Assembly (NCBI GenBank): GCA_001873215.1 | Contig: MNYS01000002.1 | Location: 28,395 to 92,394, forward strand | Direction: 5' to 3' | DNA: 64,000 nt | From: Candidatus Levybacteria bacterium CG2_30_37_29 | Lineage (GTDB): Bacteria; Patescibacteriota; Microgenomatia; Levybacterales; GWA1-39-11 | Shown here: positions 10,643-27,546 of the stretch, piece by piece | How the letters are laid out: the number at the start of each line of letters is the position of its first letter | How positions within the stretch are numbered: position 1 is the first letter of the stretch | Translations under genes and position numbers: made by a program | The notes under the pieces: generated by a model | What the model saw: the letters and a program-made list of their open reading frames with translations, nothing else | What the model was told of the DNA's origin: nothing | The model's database searches: none

Positions 10643-10981
10643 TTATCTAAGTGTAGCCCCGGGTTTAACTTTTGTTGCAGGTTTAATAAGAGCCGGTTTG
10701 TCAGTGTTTGTTGCAAGTATCATAGCGTGACTTTCAAGTCCCATCATTTTTCGCGGTTCAAGATTTGTTGCAAAAATGAAAGATTTTCCAATTAAATCTT
10801 TTGGGCTGTACCATTTTGCAATTCCCGACAAAACCTGCCTGCCGGCAGGCAGGCCTACCTCGTTTTCTTCTCCAAAATCAACTTGAAGTTTTAGCAATTT
10901 TTCAGAATCTTTAATTGGTTCAGCAGATAGAATTTTCCCAACTTTTAATTCGACTTTTGCGAAATCATCAAAATTTATCAC
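10643..10981 (-). CDS. tRNA-binding protein (CsaA/Trbp111/EMAP-like OB-fold domain)
   Basis: DFAKVELKVGKI...DFGEE...RQVLSGIA...GKSFIFATNL matches the tRNA-binding-domain family. Contains the 20-nt palindrome encoding LPAGRQ. Confidence 0.8.
   Translation of the reverse strand: MINFDDFAKVELKVGKILSAEPIKDSEKLLKLQVDFGEENEVGLPAGRQVLSGIAKWYSPKDLIGKSFIFATNLEPRKMMGLESHAMILATNTDKPALIKPATKVKPGATLR
10834..10853. repeat. Perfect 20-nt palindrome CCTGCCTGCCGGCAGGCAGG, in frame inside the tRNA-binding protein gene (encodes LPAGRQ)
   Basis: Read directly from the sequence. A GC-rich island within an AT-rich CDS. Identical to the copy at 13138-13157. Confidence 0.9.
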
Positions 10982-12607: not shown

Positions 12608-13786
12608 CTACAAATAGTTTTTCCCCGGCTCAGTAACAAAAATATCGTGGGGATGACTTTCTTGAAGGGAAGATTGAGTAATTTGGATAAATTTTGCTTT
12701 TTCCCAAAGATCAAGAATTGTTTTTGCCCCCACATAATACATTCCGGATTTAATTCCCCCAATTGCTTGTTCAACGAGTTCTGTAACCGTTCCTTTCACA
12801 GGAACTAGCCCTTCAACCCCTTCTGCAACAAGAACTCTATCAGAGTAGCTTTTTCCGTGAAATTCTCCCTCAGATTTTATTTTTGCGCCTCGCTCCATAG
12901 CACCGATTGATCCCATTCCACGATACTCTTTGAACATGTATGTTTTGTGTTTTCTAAAAATACTTTTAAAACGAGAAGGGACCTGCGATTCGGAAAACCG
13001 TGTAGTTTTGCCGGGAGATTCTTCACATGTAGCAAAAAAGGATCCCATCATAACGGTTGACGCTCCAACAGCAAGTGCTTTTACAATGTCTCCAGAATAC
13101 TGAATTCCACCGTCCGCAATTACAGGAATATTTGTCTCCTGCCTGCCGGCAGGCAGGTTTCGTGCCGCGCGCACAACTTCAGTAATAGCAGTAATTTGAG
13201 GTACTCCAATTCCCGAAATTACTCGAGTGGTACAAATTGCACCCGGCCCCATACCGACGCGTAGGCAATCCGCTCCTGCACGAATTAGAGCGGAAGCTCC
13301 TTCATGCGTTGCAACACTTCCGCAAATTACATCTATTTTAAAATTGTTCTTTATGGAAGTTAGTGTTTCAATAACGCTTTTTGAAAACCCGTGTGCTGAA
13401 TCTATAACAATTACATCAACGCCTGCTTTCATCAGGGTTTCAACACGTTTTTCAAATCCGTTATTGGCTCCAATTGCCGCACCGACAAGCAATGTTTGGC
13501 CTGTCGAAGTATCTTTTTTTACTTTTCTCACTTCATTTGCTTGTTTTTCTATTGGTAAATTTCGGTGAATTATTCCAATTCCTCCAAGTTTTCCAAGAGC
13601 AATTGCAAGCTTTGATTCGGTAACCGTATCCATGGGAGAAGAAATAAATGGGATAGAAAGAGAAATATTCTTTGTAAGTTTTGTTGAAAGGTCAATTTTT
13701 TCGCGGGGAAAGTCAGTGTAATTTGGAAGAAGAAGAATGTCGTTAAAAGTAAGGCCTACTAAGAAATCTTTTTTTTGGAGTACCAT
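12608..13786 (-). CDS. guaB: IMP dehydrogenase, CBS (Bateman) domain-less form
   Basis: [12 protein letters not shown]-terminus, catalytic GIGVPQITA and [23 protein letters not shown], active-site Cys loop [10 protein letters not shown]. 392 aa: the roughly 110-aa CBS pair is missing between EVRKVKK and LLVGAAIG. Contains the 20-nt palindrome encoding LPAGRQ. Confidence 0.85.
13138..13157. repeat. Perfect 20-nt palindrome CCTGCCTGCCGGCAGGCAGG, in frame inside guaB (encodes LPAGRQ)
   Basis: Read directly from the sequence. Lies in the loop just N-terminal to IPVIADGG, where this protein has about 4-6 more residues than E. coli GuaB. Confidence 0.9.
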
Positions 13787-16018: not shown

Positions 16019-16392
16019 CTGCAGAACGCACCACTTTAGACCCATTATATCACTCCCGGAAAAACCGTTTGCATAATCAAGATATAGGTCGATATGTGTT
16101 TTTATCAGTAGCGACTTGATACTTAGCAATTGCTTTATCTGTAATCTCTGACATATTTTATGCTTAATCATGTGGGTAGGGTTGCAGACCTGCCCGTCTT
16201 TGCTGCATAGATTGTATCCTGTGAGAACCTATTATGTCCAGCAGGTAATGCAGGTCGATTTGAATTACATCAACGCTATTCTACTCAACGAACAAGCCCA
16301 AGTATCGAATCAATATCAAGATAGAAGCACCGAATATTTAGTAGCAAGGAAGTATTAGAACCTAGTAAATAAGATGTATAATAAAGAGGAAT

Positions 16393-16923
16393 ATGATTCC
16401 ATTCCATCCTCATTTTCAATATGGCGCTGCAACAGATAATTGGACTGCGTGGGAGGCTATAGGTACTATTGCAGCAGCTACGGTATCTTTCTTTACGTTA
16501 CTTTTGCTTAGAAGTCAGCTCGAAAAAGAGCAAGAACCATTCGTTGTAGCCCGTGATGATGTTTCTTTCGAAAGTGGCAATTTCAAGATAAAGCTAAAAA
16601 ATGTAGGAAGAGGACCAGCTTTTAATATAACAGGTTGTCGAACATCAAATGAGAAAGAACGGAATGACGCTTTTTTTATGAGCAATCAACCTCATAGCAA
16701 AAATCTTTGTGCAAACAACGCTGATGCGGAAGGTGAAAAGCAATGGAGAATTGATAAATTTGTTATAGATTCACTAAAAGTGGATAAAACTAACAAGGAG
16801 ATTTATAAATACTTCTATTTTTTTTATGAGAGTCAATTGGGTTCGGTTTACCATACAAAAGTTAAGATAAAAAAAGATGGAGATAATTTTATAGTGATGG
16901 AGAATACGCGATTAAAATTATAG
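16393..16923 (+). CDS. Hypothetical protein with N-terminal TM helix (176 aa)
   Basis: TM helix AIGTIAAATVSFFTLLLL. No family recognised. Appears operonic with the downstream 307-aa protein (40-nt gap). Confidence 0.45.
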   Translation: MIPFHPHFQYGAATDNWTAWEAIGTIAAATVSFFTLLLLRSQLEKEQEPFVVARDDVSFESGNFKIKLKNVGRGPAFNITGCRTSNEKERNDAFFMSNQPHSKNLCANNADAEGEKQWRIDKFVIDSLKVDKTNKEIYKYFYFFYESQLGSVYHTKVKIKKDGDNFIVMENTRLKL

Positions 16924-16963
16924 AAAAGAATGCAGTAGTCTCCTTAAGCTATAATTCAACCAT

Positions 16964-17887
16964 ATGTCAGTAGTTGTGGGCTTCGGTTTTCCAGAAGAAG
17001 CAATACTCATAAGTGATAGTAGAGTTTCATTTGACGAGCCAAGGCTTGAGCCTCGTGATGAAATTAGAAAAATCTACCAGTTAGGCAAACATTTGACAGT
17101 TGGCTTCACCAGTCAGCATGTCCAATTTACATTAGAAATATTAAGGAGAATTACAAATTACTCGTTAAACAAATCAAAATCACAAGCTACTTTATATCTA
17201 TTAGACAAAGTTCCAAAAGTAGCAAGATATTTTTATAATCAGCTCTCTGAGAAGGTAGGATGGAAACCACCAATGGAAATAGTCTACGCTGGCGTTGTAA
17301 CCGACAGATACCTGGGTGTATCGGAGCAACTCATATTTGATTTAATGAAAAATAAAGGTGGCGGACATATTCCAACGAAAATTGCGATTGGCATGCAAAA
17401 TACCCAAAACGGGATTATGAATTTACCTCCCCCTTCTCCTGTCGTGACAAAACAAATTTTTCCCTCAGGCGAAATACTCCCGCTAGTCTCTCTTGGTTTC
17501 GTTGTATCTGGAACTGGTTCAGGAATCGCCAAGAAAATTCAGGAATCTGAAGCTGAATTGTTTTTCGCAGATTCCGAAATACCAATGAGATTATCTATGA
17601 TAAGAATGCTTTGCGATGATTACATTAAAGAGGCGAGTGTCGACACTATCGGAGGACTAGTTCAAATATTGAAAGTTAACGAAAAAGGTATTTTCCCAAT
17701 GATATACTCGCGTACAAATATTAGCCCAGAGGGTAAAGAGATTAAGGCTGAAACATTAAGTTTTGTTAATGGAGAATGGATTATGGAATATCACCAGACG
17801 GGGAAAATTATCCGTGTTAAACAAAATCCTTTAATTATGGATATAAAGAAAAATGTTAATGTTAAAAAACAGTCTTGGGCAGCCTGA
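16964..17887 (+). CDS. Hypothetical protein with an HslV/proteasome-beta-like (Ntn-hydrolase-like) N-terminal region
   Basis: MSVVVGFGFPEEAILISDSRVSF...IRKIYQLGKHLTVGFTSQHVQFTLEIL parallels HslV TTIVSVRR.G.VVIGGDGQ.S....KVRRLY.GKVLAGFAGGTADAFTLFE. Ser occupies the position that would be exposed after Met removal. Inference from pattern only. Confidence 0.4.
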   Translation: MSVVVGFGFPEEAILISDSRVSFDEPRLEPRDEIRKIYQLGKHLTVGFTSQHVQFTLEILRRITNYSLNKSKSQATLYLLDKVPKVARYFYNQLSEKVGWKPPMEIVYAGVVTDRYLGVSEQLIFDLMKNKGGGHIPTKIAIGMQNTQNGIMNLPPPSPVVTKQIFPSGEILPLVSLGFVVSGTGSGIAKKIQESEAELFFADSEIPMRLSMIRMLCDDYIKEASVDTIGGLVQILKVNEKGIFPMIYSRTNISPEGKEIKAETLSFVNGEWIMEYHQTGKIIRVKQNPLIMDIKKNVNVKKQSWAA

Positions 17888-18144
17888 TATACTAATAGTT
17901 AGTAACAAGACCGAAAGATAATCAACTATAGAAGTACCACTCGGAGTAACATTTTTCAAAAAAGTAGAGCTTTACCAAAAAATCGAGCTCTCTGAGGGAA
18001 TTATAGGGATAAATAGGCATCTCGGTCAGAAGCTATAGGTTATTTGGCTGGCACTGGTTGAGGATTTCAGAACTGCAAACTGGACTGAAATCATCAAATA
18101 TCCAGAGCTAGTATATCAAAAATCAGAAGGATATCTTCAGCTAT

Positions 18145-18747
18145 TTAACTGATAAGTTTCTTTTTCTTTGCTTCTTCAATAATTTGTTTCATCATTGTAT
18201 TTACATCTATTAGATATGTTTCAACATTTTCTTTTATGAAAATATCTTTTTTTAACTTAGCGGAAGGTAATTCCCATTTGTTATTTATATAGTCTACATA
18301 TAAATGTCTCCACTTTAATTTTTCTGTTTCTCCTTCCTCAATCTCCTTAATGCTTTTTAGAATTTCTTTTATTGAATTATTTATATCCTCAATAGTTCTC
18401 CCTTCTAAGAATTTAGGATTATTTTTCTTTATATCTTCAAAGTTTTCTCTTAAAAGATTTTGTCCTACGAGCATCATTTTAATCAAACCAGTTTGCTTAA
18501 ATTTATGGTCTCTAAATGTCTTCCAAAATTCTTGCCAATCAACTGTTTTATTCTCTATGAGGTTTATTGCAACAAGCCCTAGATAATATGCTTTTGATAG
18601 CTCTTCAATAGCTATTGCATATAGAAAAGTTGCAGTTGGAGATTTTGCTTTTTCTAATAAGTTACCATCGTCTTTTATTTTATGTGCGTTATATAGCATT
18701 TTATCCATTCCCACTATACATTGAGTAATATCAAGATTTGTTTTCAT
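18145..18747 (-). CDS. AbiV-like abortive-infection family protein (putative)
   Basis: 200 aa, all-helical. The AIAIEELSKAYYLG segment resembles the conserved A.EE.GK core of the AbiV family. Size matches AbiV (about 200 aa). Moderate confidence. Confidence 0.45.
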   Translation of the reverse strand: MKTNLDITQCIVGMDKMLYNAHKIKDDGNLLEKAKSPTATFLYAIAIEELSKAYYLGLVAINLIENKTVDWQEFWKTFRDHKFKQTGLIKMMLVGQNLLRENFEDIKKNNPKFLEGRTIEDINNSIKEILKSIKEIEEGETEKLKWRHLYVDYINNKWELPSAKLKKDIFIKENVETYLIDVNTMMKQIIEEAKKKKLIS

Positions 18748-18814
18748 AAGTTATATTTTCTTATAATCTTTCTAAAGTTAAAAAGCAATCATTCTTAAAT
18801 GCTACAATAATGAT

Positions 18815-19207
18815 ATGACGAAACTCACTCCTGATGAGAGGTGGAAAAGATTTAATCAGAAACTAAATGAGCAAATGAAAGCTAATGATTTCTACAGTTT
18901 AGGTATTACTTATCAAGAGATGGCTAACTTCTTAGATAAAGAAGGGAAAAATTCAGAAGAAATGCGAAATAAAGCTTACGAAATGAAACTTTTGCATCAC
19001 CAAAACTATATTAAAAACCTACAGAATAATTCTCCGGTAAGTAAAGGTGTTGAGATACTTTCAGCACCTGATAGTTGTGAAAGTTGCTTAGCTTTAGATA
19101 GTAAGGCATTTGAGTTTAAGAAGGTTTTAGATAGTCCACCACTCCCCGTAAAAGAGTGCAAGCATATTTACGGGTGTAGATGCACATATCTTCCTGTAGC
19201 AAATTAA
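18815..19207 (+). CDS. Hypothetical Cys-rich protein; C-terminal GCRCTY motif reminiscent of the phage Mu-F/SPP1 gp7 head-morphogenesis domain
   Basis: CESC...C..YGCRCTYLP cysteine cluster. Similarity to the MuF H.NCRC motif is by pattern only. Confidence 0.35.
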   Translation: MTKLTPDERWKRFNQKLNEQMKANDFYSLGITYQEMANFLDKEGKNSEEMRNKAYEMKLLHHQNYIKNLQNNSPVSKGVEILSAPDSCESCLALDSKAFEFKKVLDSPPLPVKECKHIYGCRCTYLPVAN

Positions 19208-19902
19208 GTTTTTTCTACAATTTTAATTTCAAATTCAGGAGTTAAGAGAACTTGTTTTCCAGTATGTTCATATTCAAATTTATCAGCCCTTCCTCTATAG
19301 GGATGTATAAAACTATGCTGTTCTTTAGTTGAAAGAACTTCATCATAATCTAAATCTATCGCAAGCGTATTCGGATAAAGCTGTATTATTCTCCATGTTT
19401 TAGCATCTGGCGTTACATCACCTAAATACCATATGTCCTTAACTTTAGGATTTATCTCTTTTAGTTTTTGGTTTAATTCAACGGCGGGTGGAACTACTTG
19501 GTTTCTCCTTATGTAACAGACAAGGGTAAGGTTAGGGTCAACAATTTTGTTAAGTTTTATTTTCTTTAATGCTTCTAAAAAATCTCCTTCATTATCTTCT
19601 TTTCTGTATTCAAATACTTCAAGTTTAATTTCAGGTCTTTCGCTTCCCCCTATTTTTTTGTTGTGAATAAAAGTATAGCAATAGAAATCCGGTGAACCTG
19701 ATTTTATTTCTGGCTTGAAAAACCATTCCTCTCCCGAATGGTTTTTAAGTCCGAGCAAAAACATTGCTGTTATCCAAGCTTCCCTTGTTACTTTATATTT
19801 TCTATCTGTAAAGATTGTATCTCCAATACTCAAATAGGTTCTTGCAAATAAGCGGATTGCAGTATAAGGATGTATAAGTATTTCTTCGCTTGAATTTTTC
19901 AT
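19204..19902 (-). CDS. Hypothetical protein (232 aa), weak PD-(D/E)xK-like pattern
   Basis: GSPDFYCYTF ... EIKLEVFEYRK could be a degenerate PD...ExK nuclease core. Unverified. Last gene of the minus-strand operon. Confidence 0.4.
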   Translation of the reverse strand: MKNSSEEILIHPYTAIRLFARTYLSIGDTIFTDRKYKVTREAWITAMFLLGLKNHSGEEWFFKPEIKSGSPDFYCYTFIHNKKIGGSERPEIKLEVFEYRKEDNEGDFLEALKKIKLNKIVDPNLTLVCYIRRNQVVPPAVELNQKLKEINPKVKDIWYLGDVTPDAKTWRIIQLYPNTLAIDLDYDEVLSTKEQHSFIHPYRGRADKFEYEHTGKQVLLTPEFEIKIVEKT

Positions 19903-19933
19903 ATTGCGGCTATTTTATTATAAGGAAGAAAAT

Positions 19934-20848
19934 TTAACGAGTGGCAAGTTTTTTTAATCCTCGCTTCTGAACAAAGAGAAGTAGAAGCATCCTATTCAAA
20001 TTGGCAATATTAGCCATATCTTCTAATAGTTTTGTTTCATTCTTTACTCCACCCAAAAATCCACCTTCCCATTCTCCGCCAGCGAGTAGTCCATCATGAA
20101 GAAAGTTAGACCTTAAATTATGATAAAGTTTTTTTGTCATTTTCACGGCAGTATCAACATTTGAACCGGTAATAAGGCTTCTTATTAGCTTTTCTATTTC
20201 ACTTGCATGACTTGTTTCATGCTTTTTATTTATCTTTTCCCCACAATCAGGACATACTAAAAAAGATGAACAAATTGGTTTAGGATTATCTGCTAATTGG
20301 TTTATAGAAGACAACAAGAGTGTCATATAAAGAGTATATTTCAGATGTGGATTTGGTAATCTTTGGATATCCTCTGCCCACACAAATGTTTGCAAAGCTT
20401 TTTCAAATCTCATGAGTTCATCAGCATTGAGCTTTTGCAAGAGCTTACAGAAAAAGAATAATTTACCGACAGGATTAAGTTCATTTACTATTCCACCATA
20501 GCTTATGCCTTTTTCATAGAATGTTTGAGCTTTATATTTTTTGAATACATCTTCAAAACCATTCAGTCCAACAATATCTTGCGGTGCTGTATCTGAAGGC
20601 AAACCTGTAGTTAGAAGCAGGAGATTGCTAATTCTATAAAGATTTCTATACATGTTTGAAGAAGTAAGAGGCTTTATTGTTTCTAAATATAGAAAGGTTT
20701 TTTGTTTATCAAAAGCCCTTTTGTTATCTGGATTTCCTGCAAATAATATTGCACTTTTTATGTCAGAGTGAGGTAAAGCTACCAACTCATAATAAGGTTG
20801 TTCATTATTGTAAATATTAAGATGATATAAAAATAAGTATCTGGACAT
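19934..20848 (-). CDS. Hypothetical protein (about 304 aa) with CPDCGEK zinc-ribbon-like motif
   Basis: Start moved to Met32 to remove the overlap with the upstream nuclease gene. No family recognised. Confidence 0.4.
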   Translation of the reverse strand: MSRYLFLYHLNIYNNEQPYYELVALPHSDIKSAILFAGNPDNKRAFDKQKTFLYLETIKPLTSSNMYRNLYRISNLLLLTTGLPSDTAPQDIVGLNGFEDVFKKYKAQTFYEKGISYGGIVNELNPVGKLFFFCKLLQKLNADELMRFEKALQTFVWAEDIQRLPNPHLKYTLYMTLLLSSINQLADNPKPICSSFLVCPDCGEKINKKHETSHASEIEKLIRSLITGSNVDTAVKMTKKLYHNLRSNFLHDGLLAGGEWEGGFLGGVKNETKLLEDMANIANLNRMLLLLFVQKRGLKKLATR

Positions 20849-20907
20849 TAGGGCTATAGCATATTTACGATGTATTATATTACAAATGAGGCTAAGATAT
20901 AATCGCT

Positions 20908-21882
20908 TTATTGCTGACAATGCAATGGAGCACCATCGCAAGCTATACCGTCTCCATCAGCATCTCTAACAGAGCACCCACATGTATTTAATTGGTATTG
21001 TGCTTCTGCACATGAAGAAATTTGGGTGCATGTTTTACTGCAGTTACAGGAATAACCACCTGTATTTTGTTGATATGTGTTATTTGTTGCAGGCGTTTGA
21101 GAGGTAGACTGACTTGCCGGCTTGGGGGTTGTTGAAGAACATGCACTCCATAACCCTTTGTTATTTGTTCTTGCTTGTTGCTCTGCTTGTCGTAATTTGT
21201 CTTGATATTTTATATCTGGCGGATAAGAAACTGCATGAGCGTATCCTTCGCTTACCAGAACTTGATTGATAAAAAGGTCTCCCATATACACATAACGCAA
21301 TAGCCTTCCATATCTGTCAGTTTCAGAAATATCCTTCTCAAGCCCTACAATACCATTTCCAACGAGTTCTTGGTTCTTTGCTGATGCTTCTTTACCATAA
21401 CATTGAACTGATTTTCTTGGGTCAACAGTTTCAGGGGTATCAATTCCTATATATCTAACGGTTTTCTTGTTGCCATTTCCTAAATCTACCTCAATGGTAT
21501 CTCCGTCAATTATTCTTATTACCCGAGCAAGCACTATATTTGCATTTGCCGGTGCAGTTTGTGGTTTCCATGTTGGAGTGGGAGAAGTATCTGATATAGA
21601 AGGCTTAGTAGCTTGAGATTGATTAAAATCTACCTTTTCTTCTTGTTTTTGTGCTTGCTTAGGAGTAGTTGAAGATAAACCTGCCACCCATGCACTGCCT
21701 ATAAAAAGTGTCAATAAGGCAATAAGAGCAATTACTCCATATTTTGCCTTCTTATTTCCTATCTTCTTATACGCAAAATAACCCGCACCAATTCCAATTA
21801 CAAAAGGAAGGAATGGTAGAGCGAGAATACCTATAGCAGGAACTGTGAGAAATTTTCTTTTACCTATAAATAATTTCTTCAT
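20908..21882 (-). CDS. Membrane-anchored thermonuclease (staphylococcal nuclease/SNase fold) with C-terminal Excalibur Ca-binding domain
   Basis: N-terminal TM helices. SNase motifs ARVIRIIDGDTIEV...VRYIGIDTPE...RYGRLLRYVY. Low-complexity T/S/P/Q linkers. C-terminal Cys-rich DADGDGIACD, the Excalibur DxDxDGxxCE signature. Confidence 0.8.
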   Translation of the reverse strand: MKKLFIGKRKFLTVPAIGILALPFLPFVIGIGAGYFAYKKIGNKKAKYGVIALIALLTLFIGSAWVAGLSSTTPKQAQKQEEKVDFNQSQATKPSISDTSPTPTWKPQTAPANANIVLARVIRIIDGDTIEVDLGNGNKKTVRYIGIDTPETVDPRKSVQCYGKEASAKNQELVGNGIVGLEKDISETDRYGRLLRYVYMGDLFINQVLVSEGYAHAVSYPPDIKYQDKLRQAEQQARTNNKGLWSACSSTTPKPASQSTSQTPATNNTYQQNTGGYSCNCSKTCTQISSCAEAQYQLNTCGCSVRDADGDGIACDGAPLHCQQ

Positions 21883-21928
21883 GCTTGGGAAGTATTATAC
21901 TACTAACAATGCGGATGTTTAATTTGTT

Positions 21929-22636
21929 TTATAACGAATTGCTAGGTTTAGTTCCCAGAAATACTAAACTAAAACCATTTTTCACATATACACAACCTAC
22001 ATTAAAATCACCGAGAATAATTTCTTTAGTTCCATCTTTCTTATCTCGAAGAAACTCAATAGCTCTGTCTGCTGTCTTGGTAATCACCCATAACTCTGTC
22101 ATTGGAGCATATTGGTTTAGTCCTGCATTTTCTACCCATTGGTCAAAACTTTCTTGCTGATTATTTGGGTCTTTTTTCAAGATTTGATATCTGCTCTCTA
22201 ACTTATTACAGATTGATGGCTCTAAAATAATAGGTTCCACATCATGTTTTTTCCTATACTCGTTTAATTTTCCAAATACTTCATTACTTGTAAATTCCCA
22301 TTCTTTGGGGGCTGTAGAGCTTACTGGATATTGTTGTTTGAATTGAACGGCATTTACAAAAATGTAAATTCCAAAAAGTAGAAAAATTGCAAATATAATT
22401 TTTGAAGCTATGCTTTTTATGCTAAATTTCTTTGAAAGAATAGGTTTTGCAAGGAAAAAAAAGATAATTACAGATAAAATGAGAACCGAAAATTTATCAA
22501 GCACATATCCTCCGCTTGTAAACTGTTGAGCTTCTACGCTTCTATCAAGAGTATTGTAAGTAAAAAGAAGCCAAACATATAGAGCACCTACAAAAGCTAG
22601 AATTCTTAATACCGGTTTTATTATTTTTCTAAACAT
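21929..22636 (-). CDS. Hypothetical membrane protein (3 TM helices + soluble C-terminal domain)
   Basis: Hydropathy read from the translation. Operonic with the nuclease gene. Confidence 0.45.
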   Translation of the reverse strand: MFRKIIKPVLRILAFVGALYVWLLFTYNTLDRSVEAQQFTSGGYVLDKFSVLILSVIIFFFLAKPILSKKFSIKSIASKIIFAIFLLFGIYIFVNAVQFKQQYPVSSTAPKEWEFTSNEVFGKLNEYRKKHDVEPIILEPSICNKLESRYQILKKDPNNQQESFDQWVENAGLNQYAPMTELWVITKTADRAIEFLRDKKDGTKEIILGDFNVGCVYVKNGFSLVFLGTKPSNSL

Positions 22637-22640
22637 TTTA

Positions 22641-22949
22641 CTATAGTTTTCTTATCCATTCGTATAATAACCCAAAGGGTATAATTGATATATCCTCTAT
22701 TTTACTTCTAAAAATTATCATTATGACCCAAGATAAAATTACAATTTTCCAATCAAAGAAAAAGAAAATTATAGTTGAGACAATAAATGCAATCATTACT
22801 AGAACAAATAGCAACTGAATAATCAAGGAGTTGAGCAGGAGAGGTCTTTCAAAAGCATGTGTCTTGCCATATCTTCCATAATATGAAGTGCAACCGGAAA
22901 AGAATAAATACATTACACTTAGTGCTATAAATTCTATATTCATACTCAT
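22641..22949 (-). CDS. Hypothetical small membrane protein (102 aa)
   Basis: Three hydrophobic segments. First gene of the minus-strand operon, divergent from the XRE regulator. Confidence 0.4.
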   Translation of the reverse strand: MSMNIEFIALSVMYLFFSGCTSYYGRYGKTHAFERPLLLNSLIIQLLFVLVMIAFIVSTIIFFFFDWKIVILSWVIMIIFRSKIEDISIIPFGLLYEWIRKL

Positions 22950-23054
22950 CTAATGTATTTAAATTATAGCTTATCTTAATCAATTTACAAGGCGAGTATT
23001 AAGGTTAAAAGGGCTATATAAAGACAATTTGAATGTTTAGGTTAATGGAAAATA

Positions 23055-23081
23055 GCAGTATATGGCTTATTATTATACTGC
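23055..23081. promoter_or_regulatory. Inverted repeat GCAGTATA-N11-TATACTGC spanning the start codon of the XRE regulator (candidate autoregulatory operator)
   Basis: Perfect 8-bp arms read directly. Lies in the divergent intergenic region between the HTH gene and the 5-gene minus-strand operon. Confidence 0.4.
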
Positions 23082-23286
23082 TAAAATTAGAGAGGAGATT
23101 GGCAAAAATATACAAAGGTCTAGAAAAAGAAAAGGATTGAAACAGGTTGATGTAGCTGTAGATGCGGGAATAAACACAAGCTATTATGGGAAAATAGAAA
23201 GGGGAATTGTCAACCCTTCTCTTGAAAAACTTTTTAGAATAATTAAATCTCTAAAAGTTAAATCCTCTGATATACTCCCTTTTTAG
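23062..23286 (+). CDS. XRE-family helix-turn-helix transcriptional regulator
   Basis: 74 aa. LKQVDVAVDAGINTSYYGKIERG is a classic Cro/C1-type HTH. Confidence 0.7.
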   Translation: MAYYYTAKIREEIGKNIQRSRKRKGLKQVDVAVDAGINTSYYGKIERGIVNPSLEKLFRIIKSLKVKSSDILPF

Positions 23287-23351
23287 TGGGAAAGTGTGAG
23301 TAAATACTCTGTATATCCCTATATGAATAAGGTGTTTACAGTAGGGAGCGT

Positions 23352-23777
23352 CTAGCTACGCCCCAACGTTTGTAGAAGCATTTCTTCTAGATGACCCTTT
23401 ACCTGCTCCACAAAGGCATGAAGGTTCTGATAGTCCTTCCAAACAATCCTTTTGACACCCTTTGCTTCTAGCTCTTGGTTATAAGGGGGTATAGAGGATA
23501 TGCCTATTATTTTATTAGGCGGGTATTTATTAAAGTCTAAGACATGAAAGCTTCCTGATGCAAAGCAATCACGGTCAAGAAGTATTATGTCAAATACATT
23601 CCTTGATACTTTATTTAGGTATTCTTCTACCTGCGTATATTCAGAAAGAACTGTAATTGCTATGGATAATCTATCCTCAAAGTGTTTTTGAAGCTTATAC
23701 AGGCATTGTAGAAGCAGAGAAAGGGTTTCCACATCGTCCTCCAACAGGAGTATTCGTATGTCTTTTAGCCTACCCAT
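23352..23777 (-). CDS. Standalone response-regulator receiver (CheY-like) domain protein
   Basis: IRILLLEDD acidic pocket, phospho-acceptor DIILLDRD, and GISS / K-like downstream residues. No output domain. 141 aa. Confidence 0.6.
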   Translation of the reverse strand: MGRLKDIRILLLEDDVETLSLLLQCLYKLQKHFEDRLSIAITVLSEYTQVEEYLNKVSRNVFDIILLDRDCFASGSFHVLDFNKYPPNKIIGISSIPPYNQELEAKGVKRIVWKDYQNLHAFVEQVKGHLEEMLLQTLGRS

Positions 23778-23928
23778 CTTATCTAAAATATAGCTTACCT
23801 TTACTTATTAAACAAGGTAGGATGGGGGGCTGGACACAAACCCTATTTGATTTATGACAAGAATATAATAAATAGTGGCGAGCATTGGCGTGTAAAAAAT
23901 ATAGGCTAAATGGTAAAATAGAGCTAAT

Positions 23929-24606
23929 GTGAATATGAATGACAATAGTTTATTTTTAGGTTTATCTCCTCATGCGGATGCTGTTAAAAGTTTAAGCAAT
24001 GAGAATTTAGAATTACTTGATAAGACTGTTCGGGAAATTTTGCGGAAAAACGAACTATCAGCTTTTCAGGAAATAACATTTGATGCCGACCCAAATACAA
24101 AAGAAACAGTGGATTATCTCAATAGGCATATTCTTCATAAAAATATCAATACAAATTCGGAGCGGATAATTTTAGACCTTTCAGAAGAAGATATAGAAGC
24201 CTTGTATAGGTGTAGTCAAGCAATAAAGGATGAGAAAGAAAAGAGGCAGATAATAAGCCCATTAAATAATGCAGGCGTAGATAAAATAAAAATCCCTGCT
24301 GGATGGACGCTAGAAGAAGATGAAAAAGGTAGGGCTTTCCTTAACAGGAATGGAAAAGTTATGTTTGAATTCAAGCATAATTGGACAAATAAGTATAAAT
24401 ACTTTAAGGTAATGTGGGAAAATTATGGTCAAAAGGTTGATTATAAAATTGTCTACGAGTTTCGTTCAAAGCTAATCTACCCGGAAAAGGGTGTATCCAA
24501 ATTCAATAGTAACATGCGAAACACCATAAATAAATTAAGAAAAGAAATGAAACATTTACCTATTAAAATTAAAACATCAAAGGGTTTTCAACTCCTTATA
24601 AGATAA
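23929..24606 (+). CDS. Hypothetical protein (225 aa)
   Basis: No family recognised. Lies within the mobile element. Confidence 0.4.
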   Translation: MNMNDNSLFLGLSPHADAVKSLSNENLELLDKTVREILRKNELSAFQEITFDADPNTKETVDYLNRHILHKNINTNSERIILDLSEEDIEALYRCSQAIKDEKEKRQIISPLNNAGVDKIKIPAGWTLEEDEKGRAFLNRNGKVMFEFKHNWTNKYKYFKVMWENYGQKVDYKIVYEFRSKLIYPEKGVSKFNSNMRNTINKLRKEMKHLPIKIKTSKGFQLLIR

Positions 24607-24683
24607 ACTACCCCCGAAAAGCTCTTAAAAGCTCTATTTCGCTCTAATAGACAGGCTCTAATTGTGCCCTTTATATTAAGCTC

Positions 24684-24929
24684 ATGATTATAAATGATAA
24701 TAAAAATCATTTCCAAACTTCAGATTTAGCATTAGCTTCTTTTCTGTCCCTTACCTACCCTATTGAAAAGATAGATAAATCAAACCCCAAACGGGCAGAA
24801 TTTGTCTTTAAGAACCCTGAAGAACTACATAATCTGATTGATACCTATTGGCAAGGTAAGGCAAGAGTTGAACCACAAGTATTCTTCAATCAATTAAAAA
24901 TTGTAAAAGCTCGTTTATATGGAGAATAA
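24684..24929 (+). CDS. DUF5659 domain protein
   Basis: TSDLALASFLSL...PKRAEFVFKNPEEL..LIDTYWQGKARVEPQVFFNQLKIVKARLY matches the DUF5659 pattern (TSDL.LASFL...P.R.VFVFE...EL....FW.G.ARV.P..FF.AL...K.RIY), common in phage/plasmid contexts. Confidence 0.55.
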   Translation: MIINDNKNHFQTSDLALASFLSLTYPIEKIDKSNPKRAEFVFKNPEELHNLIDTYWQGKARVEPQVFFNQLKIVKARLYGE

Positions 24930-24933
24930 ATTT

Positions 24934-25080
24934 ATGTTGAGTAAGCCTTTATTAGAAGAACTAAGACAAATAATGAAAAGAAAGTATAGTTTGGAGCTTA
25001 ACGATAAAGAGCTTTTTGAGTTTGCCAACTCACTTGTAGGCTATTTTGACTTACTCTTGAAAGGAAGTCTAAGAAAATAA
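24934..25080 (+). CDS. Small hypothetical ORF (48 aa, MLSKPLLEELRQIMKRKYSLELNDKELFEF...)
   Basis: ATG ORF below the track cutoff that tightly fills the gap between DUF5659 and the next gene. Helical. Confidence 0.3.
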   Translation: MLSKPLLEELRQIMKRKYSLELNDKELFEFANSLVGYFDLLLKGSLRK

Positions 25081-25082
25081 GT

Positions 25083-25814
25083 ATGGCAAAAGCACGAATG
25101 CTACATAAAAAGATTTCTGTTTCAACACAGGTAAATAAACTTTACTTACCCGCAAGGCTTCTTTTTACATGGATGATTGCACACGCAGATGATGAAGGTA
25201 GGTTGAAAGGAGATGCAGATTACATAAGGGCGATTGTTGTCCCAATGACAAAGTGGTCTTTCAAAAAGATAGGAAATTATCTTGAAGAAATAAAAAACGC
25301 AGGACTTATTTATTACTGGCAACAAAATGGTGAGTGGTTTGTAGAATTTATAAAATGGCGAGAGCATCAAAGCATAAGAAGTGATAGATATATTTCTTCA
25401 TTGCTACCCTCATTTATGAAAGGGACTGATGACAAATTGGCTACCAATAGTCAACCGGATGACAACCAAAAGCCTACTCAAGATAATATAGTTCAATCCA
25501 AAATAAAACAAGAGAATTTTAATAAAAGCGAATATAAGGAAGACGCCGATAAAACATCTAAAGTCATAAACCCTAGAACCTTTACACCAAGCAATGATGG
25601 AGAGAGTATTGCCTTAGAAACATATAAGCGGTTAGAACCGAATAACCCATTTGCATTTCAAGCTACCTATCTAAAGGCTCTAAAAAGAGGTTTGCCTCTA
25701 CATTTGTTCGGTGAATTCGCTAGTCAAATAGAACAAGATAACTCTGTTAAAAATCGGGGTGCAGTGTTTAATATAAAAGTTGATGAATACTTTGAAAACA
25801 GAGTTCGGAAATAG
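25083..25814 (+). CDS. Hypothetical protein; N-terminal region resembles phage replication-initiator/replisome-organiser winged-helix domains (tentative)
   Basis: LPARLLFTWMIAHADDEGRL...YLEEIKNAGLIYYW pattern. Low-complexity acidic/polar middle. Function inferred weakly. Confidence 0.35.
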   Translation: MAKARMLHKKISVSTQVNKLYLPARLLFTWMIAHADDEGRLKGDADYIRAIVVPMTKWSFKKIGNYLEEIKNAGLIYYWQQNGEWFVEFIKWREHQSIRSDRYISSLLPSFMKGTDDKLATNSQPDDNQKPTQDNIVQSKIKQENFNKSEYKEDADKTSKVINPRTFTPSNDGESIALETYKRLEPNNPFAFQATYLKALKRGLPLHLFGEFASQIEQDNSVKNRGAVFNIKVDEYFENRVRK

Positions 25815-25863
25815 TCCTATGAGCCTTATTGCAAAACAAAATAAAAGAGGGATAATTAAGAAA

Positions 25864-27408
25864 ATGAGAATGAAAATAGTATCATTTGCCAGAGTTTCTA
25901 CAAGAGAGCAGGCAGAGGAAGGCTACTCTTTGCCTGCCCAAGAGAAACTACTCAACGAGTATTCTTTCCGACATAGCGATTGGGTAAATATCAAACACTT
26001 TGCAGTTCCTGAAAGTGCATCCGGAAAGCAAGAGAGGAAAGTGTTTAACATACTTTTGGATTACCTAGATACACATAAAGATATTAAAGTTCTTCTTTGT
26101 GAAAAAGTTGATAGAATTTCTAGAAATTTTAAGGATGCGGTTAGGCTTGACGAATGGTTAAATGAAGACGAAGAAAGACAAATACATTTTGTTAAACAAA
26201 ATCTAGTAATACATAAAAACTCCCGTTCCCACGAAAAATTCCAATGGGATATGTATATTGCTCTTGCAAGGCAATATAGCAACAACCTTTCAGAAGAAAC
26301 AAAAAAAGGTCTTTATGAGAAAGCAGAGCAAGGTTGGTTTCCGGGCAATCACAAGAGGGGGTATAAGTGTATTGGAGATAGAGGACATAAAATATGGGAG
26401 ATAGACCAAGAAAAACCAGACGCAAAGTATATTGAGATGGGATTTGTCTTATTCAACACAGGTAACTTTACATTACGAACACTTGCAGTTGAGCTATTTA
26501 AGCAAGGATGGAGTGTTAAAACTAAACCTATTTCAATAAGTGAGCTTCACAAACTTTTAACTGACCCCTTCTATTGCGGTGAGTTTATTTTTAGAGGGAA
26601 GCATTATAAGAATGGTAAGCATCAGCCTTTAGTTTCCCAAGAACTCTTTTATAGCGTTCAAGAGCGTTTGCAACGCAAAGTAAAAGCAGGTAAATACAGA
26701 AAGCATCATTTTCTTTTTGGTGGTGGTTTAGCTACCTGTGGCGAATGTGAAAGAACAATTACATGGGAGCTTCAAAAAGGACACCATTATGGGCGTTGCA
26801 CGAAACACAAGACAAGCTGTTCCCAAAAAGCATATACAAGAGAAGAAGATGTCCAAGGACAAGTTCTTACATACCTAGATAAATTAAGAATTGATGACCC
26901 TGAATTACTTGAATGGGTTAGGAAAGCCTTAAAAGAAGCACACAGGGCAGGAAGCGAATATCATGAAGATATTGTTAAAGAACTTGATACACAATATCTT
27001 AGGGTCAAGAATAGGTTGGATGTTCTCTATGATGATAGAGCTGATGGTCTGATTTCAAAAGACCAATACGAATATAAAAAAGGTCAATACGAAAAGCAAC
27101 TAAACGACATTGTAGAGGCAAAGCAAAAACACTGCAAGGCAAATATAGACTACATGAGATTAGGAATAAACATTTTTGAACTTGCACAAAGGGGGCGTGA
27201 AATCTACGAAAAGAAACTCTTAATGGAAGAAAAGAAGGAGCTACTCAACTTTGTATTTTTGAACCTTAAAATCAGGGATAAAAAGGTCATTCCTAGCTTC
27301 AAAAATGGGTTTGAAGTGGTGGCAAAGCGGGCAGAAGATGGGAATTGGCTGGGAGTCAGGGATTCGAACCCCAATAAACAGGTCCAGAACCTGTTGTCCT
27401 ACCATTAG
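25864..27408 (+). CDS. Large serine recombinase (resolvase/invertase catalytic domain + recombinase domain + zinc ribbon)
   Basis: MRMKIVSFARVSTREQ catalytic Ser motif, DRISRN, and a Cys cluster CGECERTITW...GRCTKHKTSC. AGAGGG RBS upstream. The ORF 3' end runs into the tRNA-Gln sequence, so the true stop/att overlap is uncertain. Confidence 0.8.
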   Translation: MRMKIVSFARVSTREQAEEGYSLPAQEKLLNEYSFRHSDWVNIKHFAVPESASGKQERKVFNILLDYLDTHKDIKVLLCEKVDRISRNFKDAVRLDEWLNEDEERQIHFVKQNLVIHKNSRSHEKFQWDMYIALARQYSNNLSEETKKGLYEKAEQGWFPGNHKRGYKCIGDRGHKIWEIDQEKPDAKYIEMGFVLFNTGNFTLRTLAVELFKQGWSVKTKPISISELHKLLTDPFYCGEFIFRGKHYKNGKHQPLVSQELFYSVQERLQRKVKAGKYRKHHFLFGGGLATCGECERTITWELQKGHHYGRCTKHKTSCSQKAYTREEDVQGQVLTYLDKLRIDDPELLEWVRKALKEAHRAGSEYHEDIVKELDTQYLRVKNRLDVLYDDRADGLISKDQYEYKKGQYEKQLNDIVEAKQKHCKANIDYMRLGINIFELAQRGREIYEKKLLMEEKKELLNFVFLNLKIRDKKVIPSFKNGFEVVAKRAEDGNWLGVRDSNPNKQVQNLLSYH

Positions 27409-27419
27409 ACGAACTCCCA
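27346..27419 (-). tRNA. tRNA-Gln (anticodon CTG)
   Basis: Manually folded cloverleaf: acceptor TGGGAGT/ACTCCCA, D-stem GTCT/GGAC, anticodon stem ACAGG/CCTGT with loop TTCTGGA, T-loop TTCGAAT, discriminator G, and an encoded CCA. Confidence 0.8.
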
Positions 27420-27546
27420 ATGTGTGTTTATTTTACTAAAAACTGAACTTATTTGCTACGGGATATTGATTATTGCATATGCTTAAACTATACTAAGTCT
27501 CACCTCAGAATTTATTTTGATATACTTGACCCTGAAAAGATCGGGG

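Follow-up and report, generated by a model that had tools for sequence, protein, structure and literature searches.

A putative plasmid-like integrative element of Patescibacteria whose large serine recombinase gene spans its own attachment site and is split at a tRNA-Gln gene

We analysed a stretch of 64,000 nucleotides (hereafter the window) from Candidatus Levybacteria bacterium CG2_30_37_29 (GenBank assembly GCA_001873215.1, contig MNYS01000002.1, positions 28,395 to 92,394), in which the gene of a large serine recombinase (LSR) runs into a tRNA-Gln gene. Judged from its junctions, its genes and its relatives, 18052-27344 is very probably a plasmid-like integrative element in its integrated state, one of a family of small elements (6-9 kb) that is widespread in Patescibacteria. 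It is proposed that the recombinase would join attP of the element to the 3' end of the tRNA gene by a crossover inside GCTG, with the element resupplying the CCA end. In the free circle the enzyme would end in a conserved tail of three predicted helices; after integration the coding sequence of this tail would be stranded at 18045-18152, and the gene would run antisense into the tRNA and acquire a host-dependent peptide. A reading made earlier from the letters alone (the sequence-only reading) had proposed an integrative element with plasmid-type and defence-type genes at this tRNA-Gln, which the junctions, a replication initiator-like (Rep-like) gene and the AbiV and SNase genes bear out. 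It missed that attP falls within the gene of the recombinase, which integration therefore splits. The features are collected in Table 1.

The enzyme is a bona fide LSR, with a resolvase domain, a recombinase domain and a Cys4 zinc ribbon carrying a coiled-coil insert. The Pfam matches are Resolvase (3.9e-20, residues 6-157), Recombinase (4.3e-10) and Zn_ribbon_recom (4.6e-5), the last with a score of 24.1 bits, slightly below the cutoff of 25.3. The residues R10, V11 and S12 of the catalytic domain and the zinc-ribbon cysteines C292, C295, C312 and C319 are invariant among 32 homologues. Sequence matches in the PDB are the TP901-1 integrase (catalytic domain) and the A118 integrase. The AlphaFold2 model of a homologue, with a predicted local distance difference test score (pLDDT) of 81, has long paired helices (363-391 and 397-423) and is matched by Foldseek to the LSR-att complexes 9dxd, 9iu2, 9rah and 4kis, with E-values of 1e-17 to 1e-11 against full-length LSR-att cryo-electron microscopy structures. 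As the sequence-only reading had it, the gene ends in the 3' end of tRNA-Gln: the open reading frame (ORF) passes antisense through the intact tRNA-Gln(CTG) for 63 nt. The Trp codon TGG (27346-27348) corresponds to the CCA end read on the opposite strand, and from this codon on the last 20 codons follow the tRNA in reverse complement, starting at CCA. Residues 1-495 are native, and the last 19 (LGVRDSNPNKQVQNLLSYH) are encoded by antisense tRNA-Gln, giving the integrated-state ending LGVRDSNP...SYH. An exact-protein look-up of the 542-aa ORF returned no record; gene callers use other start codons. The same locus is present in the metagenome-assembled genomes GCA_002793055.1 and GCA_002790535.1, and the housekeeping genes of the window have their nearest counterparts in Candidatus Levybacteria and other groundwater Microgenomates, with Lon homologues 77-87% identical.

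Two endings occur among the 120 best homologues of the LSR (48-89% identity; Woese-, Gottesman-, Roizmanbacteria and others). About 86 of them end ...NW-L-x-x-(R/L/M)DSN(P/Q/H)...SY(H/R), which is the antisense reading of the T-arm GGTTCGAATCC; another 21 terminate a few codons past the Trp. The rarer ending, L.LV(D/E)DFRT.NW.EI..YP.LVYQKS (about eight homologues), was taken as the native C-terminus and sought in the window, where a motif scan gave a single match, on the plus strand at 18045-18152. An nhmmer profile built only from the orphan tails of other elements found the same place (18045-18151, E 3.3e-16), and this orphan tail is 80% identical to the intact tail of homologue P0053, encoded on contig L095. 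The native last 34 LSR codons (LALVEDFRTANW...) are thus stranded at the left end of the element (18048-18149). Joining 27344 to 18052 rebuilds a complete LSR gene, again with a C-terminus 80% identical to that of P0053, which places attP inside the gene, 34 codons before the stop, and means that integration splits the gene.

A population variant marks the same left end. Contig L094, from the same sample as one element-bearing contig, is 100% identical to window 17844-18052 and then diverges, reading CGTTTACAAAAAATGTCGAAC..., which encodes W-LAVYKKCRTSIC*; this tail (WLAVYKKCRTSIC) is of the type seen in homologue P0040, and a different XRE-like gene follows. The switch directly after 18052 indicates that another member of the family has inserted at this junction within the same population. 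The left end of the 9.3-kb unit can be taken, at the level of sequence, as proved by the orphan tail, the profile match and the L094 variant. Apart from TTGGCTGG, the sequences around 18044 and 27345 have nothing notable in common. The sequence-only reading had suggested looking for a repeat of the tRNA 3' end at 15.7-16.5 kb; the repeat exists, but it is 8 bp long and lies at 18044-18051. A search that allowed up to 3 mismatches over 27 nt found no long direct repeat of the tRNA 3' end, in keeping with the action of a serine recombinase, and a general repeat search of the window gave chance-level pairs only. The reconstructed attP reads ..GATGGGAATTGGCTGGCACTGGTTGAGGATTTCAGAAC.. and ...GCAGAAGATGGGAATTGGCTGGCACTGGTTGAGGATTTCAG, and the reconstructed attB ..trailer-TTGGCTGGGAGTCAGGGATTCGAACC.., with ...GCTATAGGTTATTTGGCTGGGAGTCAGGGATTCG as the inner and ...CCTGCCCGTCTTTGCTGGGAGTCAGGG as the outer attB.

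Table 1. Features of the tRNA-Gln locus, in positions of the 64,000-nucleotide window.
Feature	Position	Strand	Basis or remarks
Outer left junction attL1 (probable)	16189-16205	+	B arm CCTGCCCGTCT, then TTG, CTG; core shared with attR is GCTG, 16202-16205
Orphan recombinase tail, second type (LLHRLYPVRTYYVQQVMQVDLNYINAILLNEQ..., 52 codons and stop)	16200-16358	+	phmmer homologues
176-aa gene	16393-16923	+	
307-aa gene	16964-17887	+	sub-threshold Pfam Proteasome
Possible scrap of a lost recombinase 3' end (GCATCTCGGTCAGAAGCTATAGGTTATTTGG, ASRSEAIGYL)	18017-18047	+	weak
attL core TTGGCTGG of the intact element	18044-18051	+	exact 8-bp repeat of 27345-27352
Orphaned LSR 3' end, W LALVEDFRTANWTEIIKYPELVYQKSEGYLQLFN then stop	18045-18152	+	motif scan, nhmmer profile
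P' arm CTGGCACTGGTTGAGGATTTCAGAAC within the orphaned LSR tail	18048-18073	+	
Intact element (9.3 kb)	18052-27344		8-bp repeat TTGGCTGG at both ends
AbiV-type HEPN protein (cargo)	18145-18747	-	Pfam HEPN_AbiV PF18728, 4.9e-17
Three cargo genes (130 aa, 232 aa, 304 aa)	18815-20848	+, -, -	no significant Pfam, PHROG or PADLOC match
Membrane-anchored SNase/Excalibur nuclease	20908-21882	-	Pfam SNase 8e-25, Excalibur 4.5e-4
Two small membrane proteins of the SNase module	21929-22636, 22641-22949	-	
XRE-type helix-turn-helix regulator (backbone)	23062-23286	+	Pfam HTH_3, 2.9e-12
141-aa gene and 223-aa gene	23352-24606	-, +	no family match
DUF5659 protein (backbone)	24684-24929	+	Pfam, 2.9e-9
Conserved 53-aa ORF just upstream of Rep and LSR	24919-25080	+	tblastn matches
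Replication initiator-like protein, 243 aa	25083-25814	+	PHROG
LSR, integrated form	25864-27408	+	Pfam, PDB, fold match
attR core TTGGCTGG	27345-27352	+	one trailer base and the reverse complement of the tRNA 3' end ...CCA-G-CCA
Host tRNA-Gln(CTG), intact	27346-27419	-	ARAGORN; Rfam 58 bits, full model
B' arm CTGGGAGTCAGGGATTCGAAC	27349-27369		tRNA acceptor 3' strand and T-arm

Across the family the core common to attL/attR pairs shrinks to G-CTG. In the sister element of locus L104 GCTG is the sole sequence common to both junctions, from which we infer that the crossover falls within GCTG (27348-27351), that is, at tRNA positions ~71-74: the final two bases of the acceptor stem, then the discriminator, then the initial C of the CCA end. 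Since GC is palindromic, CT or TG is the likely crossover dinucleotide. All sequence on the 3' side of the crossover, with an encoded CCA, would come from the element and keep the tRNA whole; in hosts without a native CCA (L016, L017, L019 and L104) non-TGG triplets stand at attL. The host arm B' has the consensus CTGgGGag.agGGATTCGAAC, with GAAC at +18 to +21 from the C of CTG, and the element arm P' the consensus CTGG..CTGGT.GAtGATTT..GAAC, with GAAC at +23 to +26, and this 5-bp offset holds in both the tRNA-Gln and the tRNA-Asn clades. The P' arm ..GAGGATTTCAGAAC encodes EDFRT and the T-arm B' ..GGGATTCGAAC encodes DSN, so that EDFRT (GAG GAT TTC AGA ACT) and DSN (GAT TCG AAC) are two readings of one motif. 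This geometry suggests that P' mimics the tRNA T-arm and that the zinc-ribbon domain may read the T-loop motif. In the A118 integrase the distal motif reportedly lies ~5 bp further out in attP than in attB, a spacing difference like the +5 shift of GAAC in this family.

A scan of one genome per species yielded 72 loci across Patescibacteria, and the family ranges from Microgenomates to Parcubacteria and Peribacteria. An antisense tRNA lies on the LSR 3' end in 44 of the 72 loci. Within the close clade this is so at 22 of 24 loci, where the tRNA is tRNA-Gln (CTG or TTG) or, twice, tRNA-Trp; the Trp codon of the LSR is the reverse complement of the CCA end in most tRNA-Gln loci. A Parcubacteria clade of ~40% identity is found mainly at tRNA-Asn, and also at Leu, Arg, Asp and Ser tRNAs. 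In L016, L017, L019, L028, L032, L034, L035 and L037 orphan tails stand on the same strand, 6.3-9.3 kb upstream; in all, ten further loci, L104 included, have a tail at such a distance. The L104 element (6582 bp; LSR 89% and backbone DNA 80% identical) sits at tRNA-Gln(TTG) in a different neighbourhood. L095, which encodes the intact tail of P0053, is a circular contig of 8103 bp with a 68-nt terminal direct repeat and no tRNA. Tandem arrays occur in L102, L039 and L058, where the upstream LSR looks intact because it reads into the tail of the next element, and L041 and L069 have a second recombinase copy a few kb downstream. These sequences establish, in our view, where the junctions lie and that the recombinase gene is split, that the geometry extends across the family, that one relative is circular, that elements stand in tandem and that the site is polymorphic.

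Several relatives have features of their own. Three orphan LSR tails (at 2895, 3551 and 4485) lie within 1.6 kb upstream of one element in L037, and we take them to be stacked attL scars of repeated integrations followed by deletion. In L102 (889-3782 and 10001-15543) the array consists of two family elements at tRNA-Gln(TTG); upstream of the backbone of the first are TIR (CAP12-PCTIR), DUF6602 and SMODS-like genes, which look like a cyclic-oligonucleotide-based antiphage signalling system. The cargo of L095 (4079-7757) includes an HNH nuclease and a 969-aa RelA/SpoT-domain protein, and related RelA/SpoT fragments occur in L019.

A number of observations weigh against the interpretation of 18052-27344 as an integrated plasmid-like element. 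Neither an excised circle nor an empty attB was recovered for this particular element or for its species, and all contigs with an identical Lon or 307-aa gene carry the element. The circularity of L095 is read from the 68-nt terminal repeat of a single assembled contig. The left (B) host arms show no conservation, which may explain the frequent tandem arrays, and no convincing symmetry was seen between the P and P' or B and B' arms, which leaves the half-site model incomplete. The element encodes no functions for transfer.

Two further checks put forward by the sequence-only reading gave divided answers. By composition, GC content does not break at the element (0.338 versus 0.344, in a window of ~34% GC), whereas the tetranucleotide use of 18052-27344 (0.202) equals the maximum of 55 sliding 9.3-kb windows (median 0.113). 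As for empty sites, L096 and L097 carry tRNA-Gln and Lon with a native trailer and no recombinase, L096 (Lon 87% identical; the two genes placed as in the window) being usable for the trailer and the tRNA-Lon side only, but the species itself yielded no strictly empty site. A degenerate pattern for the four att forms and the exact 74-nt tRNA gave 0 matches in a metagenome collection that evidently lacks these samples, a result that carries no weight; the JGI contigs L002 and L004-L007 contain the att pattern. L098 and L100 were considered as strictly syntenic empty sites and rejected, as tRNA-Gln is inverted or relocated there. The tRNA-Gln(CTG) is inverted or relocated relative to Lon in three close relatives (L098 8245-8316, L100 5890-5961 and L096 3064-3137), and defence-type genes (AAA_21/AAA_15 ATPases, T5orf172) without a recombinase lie beside its 3' end; the tRNA-Gln site looks like a hot spot of rearrangement and accretion.

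The detached tail has the marks of a protein segment. Between five elements, tail codons 11-28, which lie 30-84 bp away from the core, differ at synonymous sites by 0.68 (pS) and at nonsynonymous sites by 0.18 (pN), a ratio of 0.26, and AlphaFold2 predicts three helices in the tail (pLDDT 70-88). Mostly synonymous differences and predicted helices together point to a selected protein segment, and the orphan copies are undecayed, which suggests recent integration or elements that alternate between states. The peptides that replace the tail in the integrated state are unconserved and vary in sequence and in length, from 2 to more than 60 residues.

One explanation, to which we give close to an even chance, is that the tail swap has no function: the overlap of the LSR gene with attP would follow from the compactness of the element and from T-arm mimicry, and the integrated enzyme would behave as the free one. 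The variability of the integrated-state tails, hence their lack of a conserved function, agrees with this, as do the position of all catalytic and DNA-binding domains upstream of the junction and the coincidence of the EDFRT codons with a conserved DNA motif, GAKGAYTT.(A/C)GAAC. Conservation at the protein level, however, extends far past the ~25-bp half-site, into codons 11-28, and the three predicted helices point to a function that is lost on integration. Tentatively, and with more doubt than confidence, we propose that the LSR gene is a state sensor, in which the three-helix tail supports integration in the free form and is removed at the tRNA. Such a gene would owe its regulatory effect to the tail swap or to convergent transcription with the tRNA. 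Loss of the tail, together with a strongly transcribed tRNA met head-on, could switch the directionality, stability or expression of the LSR, either without a classical excisionase or in concert with the 53-aa protein encoded upstream. If this is true, the state-sensing LSR is a serine-recombinase counterpart of the self-splitting integrases of archaea; as the T-arm that the enzyme reads is nearly universal among tRNAs, the family would be able to move from one tRNA species to another; and its members would be candidate integrases with ready-made landing sites in any genome.

The intact element does not account for all of the inserted DNA. Probably 16206-18043 is what remains of a second family member, one of a different tail type that has lost its recombinase and kept two cargo genes. 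Alternatively the 9.3-kb unit could be the only element and 16172-18043 ordinary host DNA or a small host gene, which we regard as rather unlikely. The 11-mer CTGCCCGTCTT at 16190-16200, beside the junction at ~16202, is identical in 11 of 11 positions to the native tRNA-Gln trailer of L096 and is followed by GCTG; the L096 trailer reads ...GCTGCCCGTCT-TGG-CTG... after the tRNA, and window 16189-16205 reads CCTGCCCGTCT-TTG-CTG. The sequence-only reading had suspected a coding remnant at 16172-16392, and an open frame of 52 codons (16200-16355) with homologues resembling recombinase tails indeed lies there. The frame starts at the codon equivalent to the Trp, in the register W/L-L-x-x-h-x-x-h-R-T, and GAAC (16225-16228) takes the place that it has in every P' arm, +23 to +26 when counted from the C of CTG. 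Against 1.84e9 representative proteins, phmmer returned 6 matches, a same-species copy and five small ORFs, with E-values of 4e-7 to 2e-4 and the register W-L-x-x-h-x-x-h-R-T of recombinase tails. Among them, P0261 reads ...ILRVKW|LARLYPVRTYF..., and P0259 (E 4e-7), ...ADYASRSAW|LRRLYPVRTFFVKEVM..., joins the second tail to an LSR-like C-terminus: the part before the W scores 13.0 bits against a hidden Markov model of the LSR-family C-terminus, the maximum of 1000 shuffles being 7.7. In the relative L100, DUF1653 and Lon are immediate neighbours, and nothing of the block separates them.

These points speak for the relic, and others for host DNA. The evidence for the relic consists of the 11-mer, the 52-codon frame with its small-ORF homologues, all on short contigs, and one 78-aa fragment at 13 bits. 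Profiles of the main-family tail and of the LSR 3' end found no match in 15.7-18.04 kb, staying blank both at 16.2 kb and at 17.9-18.04 kb; the second tail type had no blastp or tblastn match among the 120 homologues and all loci, and no full LSR with this tail type was seen. Against the profile negatives stand the L096 trailer, the open frame, the library homologues and L100; the 16.2-kb junction is probable, not proven. The peptide ASRSEAIGYL just before the intact element resembles the P arm of the intact LSR (GCAAAGCGGGCAGAAGATGGGAATTGG, AKRAEDGNW) and ASRSAW of P0259, and is undetected by the LSR 3'-end profile.

The 176-aa and 307-aa genes occur in no other element of the family. The sequence-only reading had called them an HslV-like pair forming part of the element; the 307-aa protein matches Pfam Proteasome below threshold only (E 0.0047, 17 bits versus a cutoff of 22.4), PADLOC had no match for either gene, and the pair lies outside the intact unit. 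It is probably cargo left by the decayed upstream element. The 307-aa family comprises 17 proteins in 5.8 billion, in varied chromosomal contexts with no consistent recombinase, which favours host DNA insofar as contexts so mixed inform at all. One homologue adjoins an anti-Pycsar Apyc1-like gene, and a homologue in L105 lies ~8.5 kb from a different LSR (554 aa, 16347-17874) with an HTH_17 excisionase-like neighbour. On the relic reading, the upstream member is probably older than the intact element; the total inserted block of 11.1 kb is composite.

Comparison of ten elements defines a backbone of the XRE regulator, DUF5659, the 53-aa ORF, Rep and the LSR, with cargo that varies between elements. 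The annotations of DUF5659, XRE, the AbiV HEPN domain and SNase with Excalibur in the sequence-only reading are upheld by Pfam (Table 1), and its guess of a replication protein by PHROG replication-initiation and DnaD-like families (1e-10 to 2e-7) for the 243-aa protein, which has a 51% identical homologue in L016; the element may replicate as an episome. XRE homologues are found in at least 10 related loci and tblastn matches to DUF5659 in 12. By tblastn the 53-aa ORF recurs in 17 related loci, as a rule immediately before the recombinase gene, and it has no Pfam or PHROG family; we consider its product a candidate recombination directionality factor. The 141-aa gene, taken earlier for a standalone receiver domain, has no Pfam, PHROG or PADLOC match to support this; both it and the 223-aa gene are conserved in L104. 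In the cargo, HEPN_AbiV PF18728 scores 62.9 bits versus a cutoff of 27.1, with a weak match to the PADLOC AbiV model (2e-4). The SNase module matches the PADLOC candidate-system model 'SNc+LTD' at 2.9e-36, and homologous SNase cargo is present in L017, L018 and L102. A role of the AbiV and SNase cargo in defence is plausible.

It is improbable that the element is a prophage or phage satellite. Among PHROG families the LSR does match the integrases of phrog_95 (2.6e-57), faint matches link the 130-aa protein to head-maturation protease (E 0.002) and Mu F (E 0.08) families, and AbiV-type and nuclease cargo is common on prophages. Yet PHROG finds no virion structural, packaging or lysis genes in the 9.3 kb; capsid, terminase, tail and lysis genes are absent from nine related elements as well, no relative occurs among the 2.9 million contigs of IMG/VR, the best phage LSR is at most 26% identical, and a Rep-like gene is present. 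Most improbable of all is the single element of 11.2 kb (16172-27420) of the sequence-only reading, mobilised as a unit: although its outer limits (16.2-27.4 kb) come near those of the inserted DNA, and the P' arm at 16.2 kb has the CTG...GAAC spacing of the inner arm, which makes excision of the whole block by the resident enzyme conceivable, a complete attL (8-bp core and cognate orphan tail) stands at 18044-18152, the population variant switches element exactly at this inner junction, the two tails are of different types, and related elements measure 6.3-9.3 kb, all of which confines the intact unit to 18052-27344.

The plasmid-like element can be set beside several known systems. The LSRs of phages and other elements (Listeria A118/LI, Bxb1, phiC31, TP901-1, SPbeta SprA) share its domain order and a short shared core; the present enzyme is at most 29% identical to any LSR in phage and plasmid collections. 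They target protein-coding genes, whereas this family targets tRNA 3' ends, has attP inside the enzyme's own coding sequence and commonly forms tandem arrays. In mycobacteriophage BPs and its relatives, which have a tyrosine integrase, attP lies in the repressor gene and immunity depends on integration. There, too, integration alters a protein C-terminus and makes the gene a sensor of physical state; the split gene is a repressor in BPs and the recombinase itself here, where an effect on stability or activity is only proposed. Integrative plasmids of the pSAM2/SLP1 type integrate at tRNA genes by tyrosine integrases. Tyrosine-integrase islands at tRNA and tmRNA genes, surveyed with Islander/TIGER (PMC4383910), likewise integrate at the tRNA end with restoration of the gene. 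Both resemble the present family in the tRNA 3' end target, the gene restored by the element, the integrase adjoining the tRNA, and hot spots with tandem arrays and decayed relics; they duplicate tens of tRNA bases as a direct repeat, as against a repeat of 4-8 bp in the present family, where the body of the tRNA comes wholly from the host.

The closest likeness is to the archaeal SSV-type ('suicidal') tyrosine integrases, which, as described in PMC7253208 and PMC8371274, have their site inside the integrase ORF, target a tRNA and leave a split gene. The layout is the same, with attP in the ORF and a gene split at a tRNA; those enzymes are tyrosine recombinases of archaea and this one is a serine recombinase of bacteria of the candidate phyla radiation (CPR), so that it is like them in layout without being a member. 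SSV integration leaves two inactive pseudogene halves, whereas here only the last 34 codons are detached and the catalytic and DNA-binding domains stay in one ORF. A large LSR survey (PMC10083194) does not mention tRNA, and a literature search of incomplete coverage on serine recombinases of CPR/Patescibacteria, tRNA-targeting LSRs and attP within serine-integrase genes returned nothing relevant. We found no description of LSRs that target tRNA 3' ends with an attP arm mimicking the T-arm, or of a gene layout that changes the enzyme on integration, and both are apparently undescribed.

CPR bacteria have tiny genomes and few described mobile elements. The family carries a changing set of defence-type genes (AbiV, SNase, HNH and RelA/SpoT, with TIR and SMODS genes next to one relative) and leaves relics beside tRNA genes, so that it may be a main route by which defence-type genes are exchanged and accumulated in CPR. 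In genome engineering, too, recombinases with an attB made up largely of a conserved stretch of tRNA could prove useful.

Some minor observations concern the surroundings of the locus. In L096 (9405-15716) and L100 (12612-18403) a type IV secretion/conjugation-like cluster, with TraC-like, VirB4/TraG-type ATPase, TrbL, type IV secretion pilin and M23 peptidase members, lies a few kb downstream of Lon; the window has instead a carbamoyltransferase and a long glycosyltransferase/PMT_2/YfhO operon. A GC-rich 26-nt palindrome, ACAAAACCTGCCTGCCGGCAGGCAGG, and its complement (96% complementary) at 10828-10853 and 13138-13163 flank the GMP synthase and IMPDH genes and are probably shared bidirectional terminators, and the tRNA-Gln trailer at 16183-16196 folds into a similar CCTGCCC hairpin.

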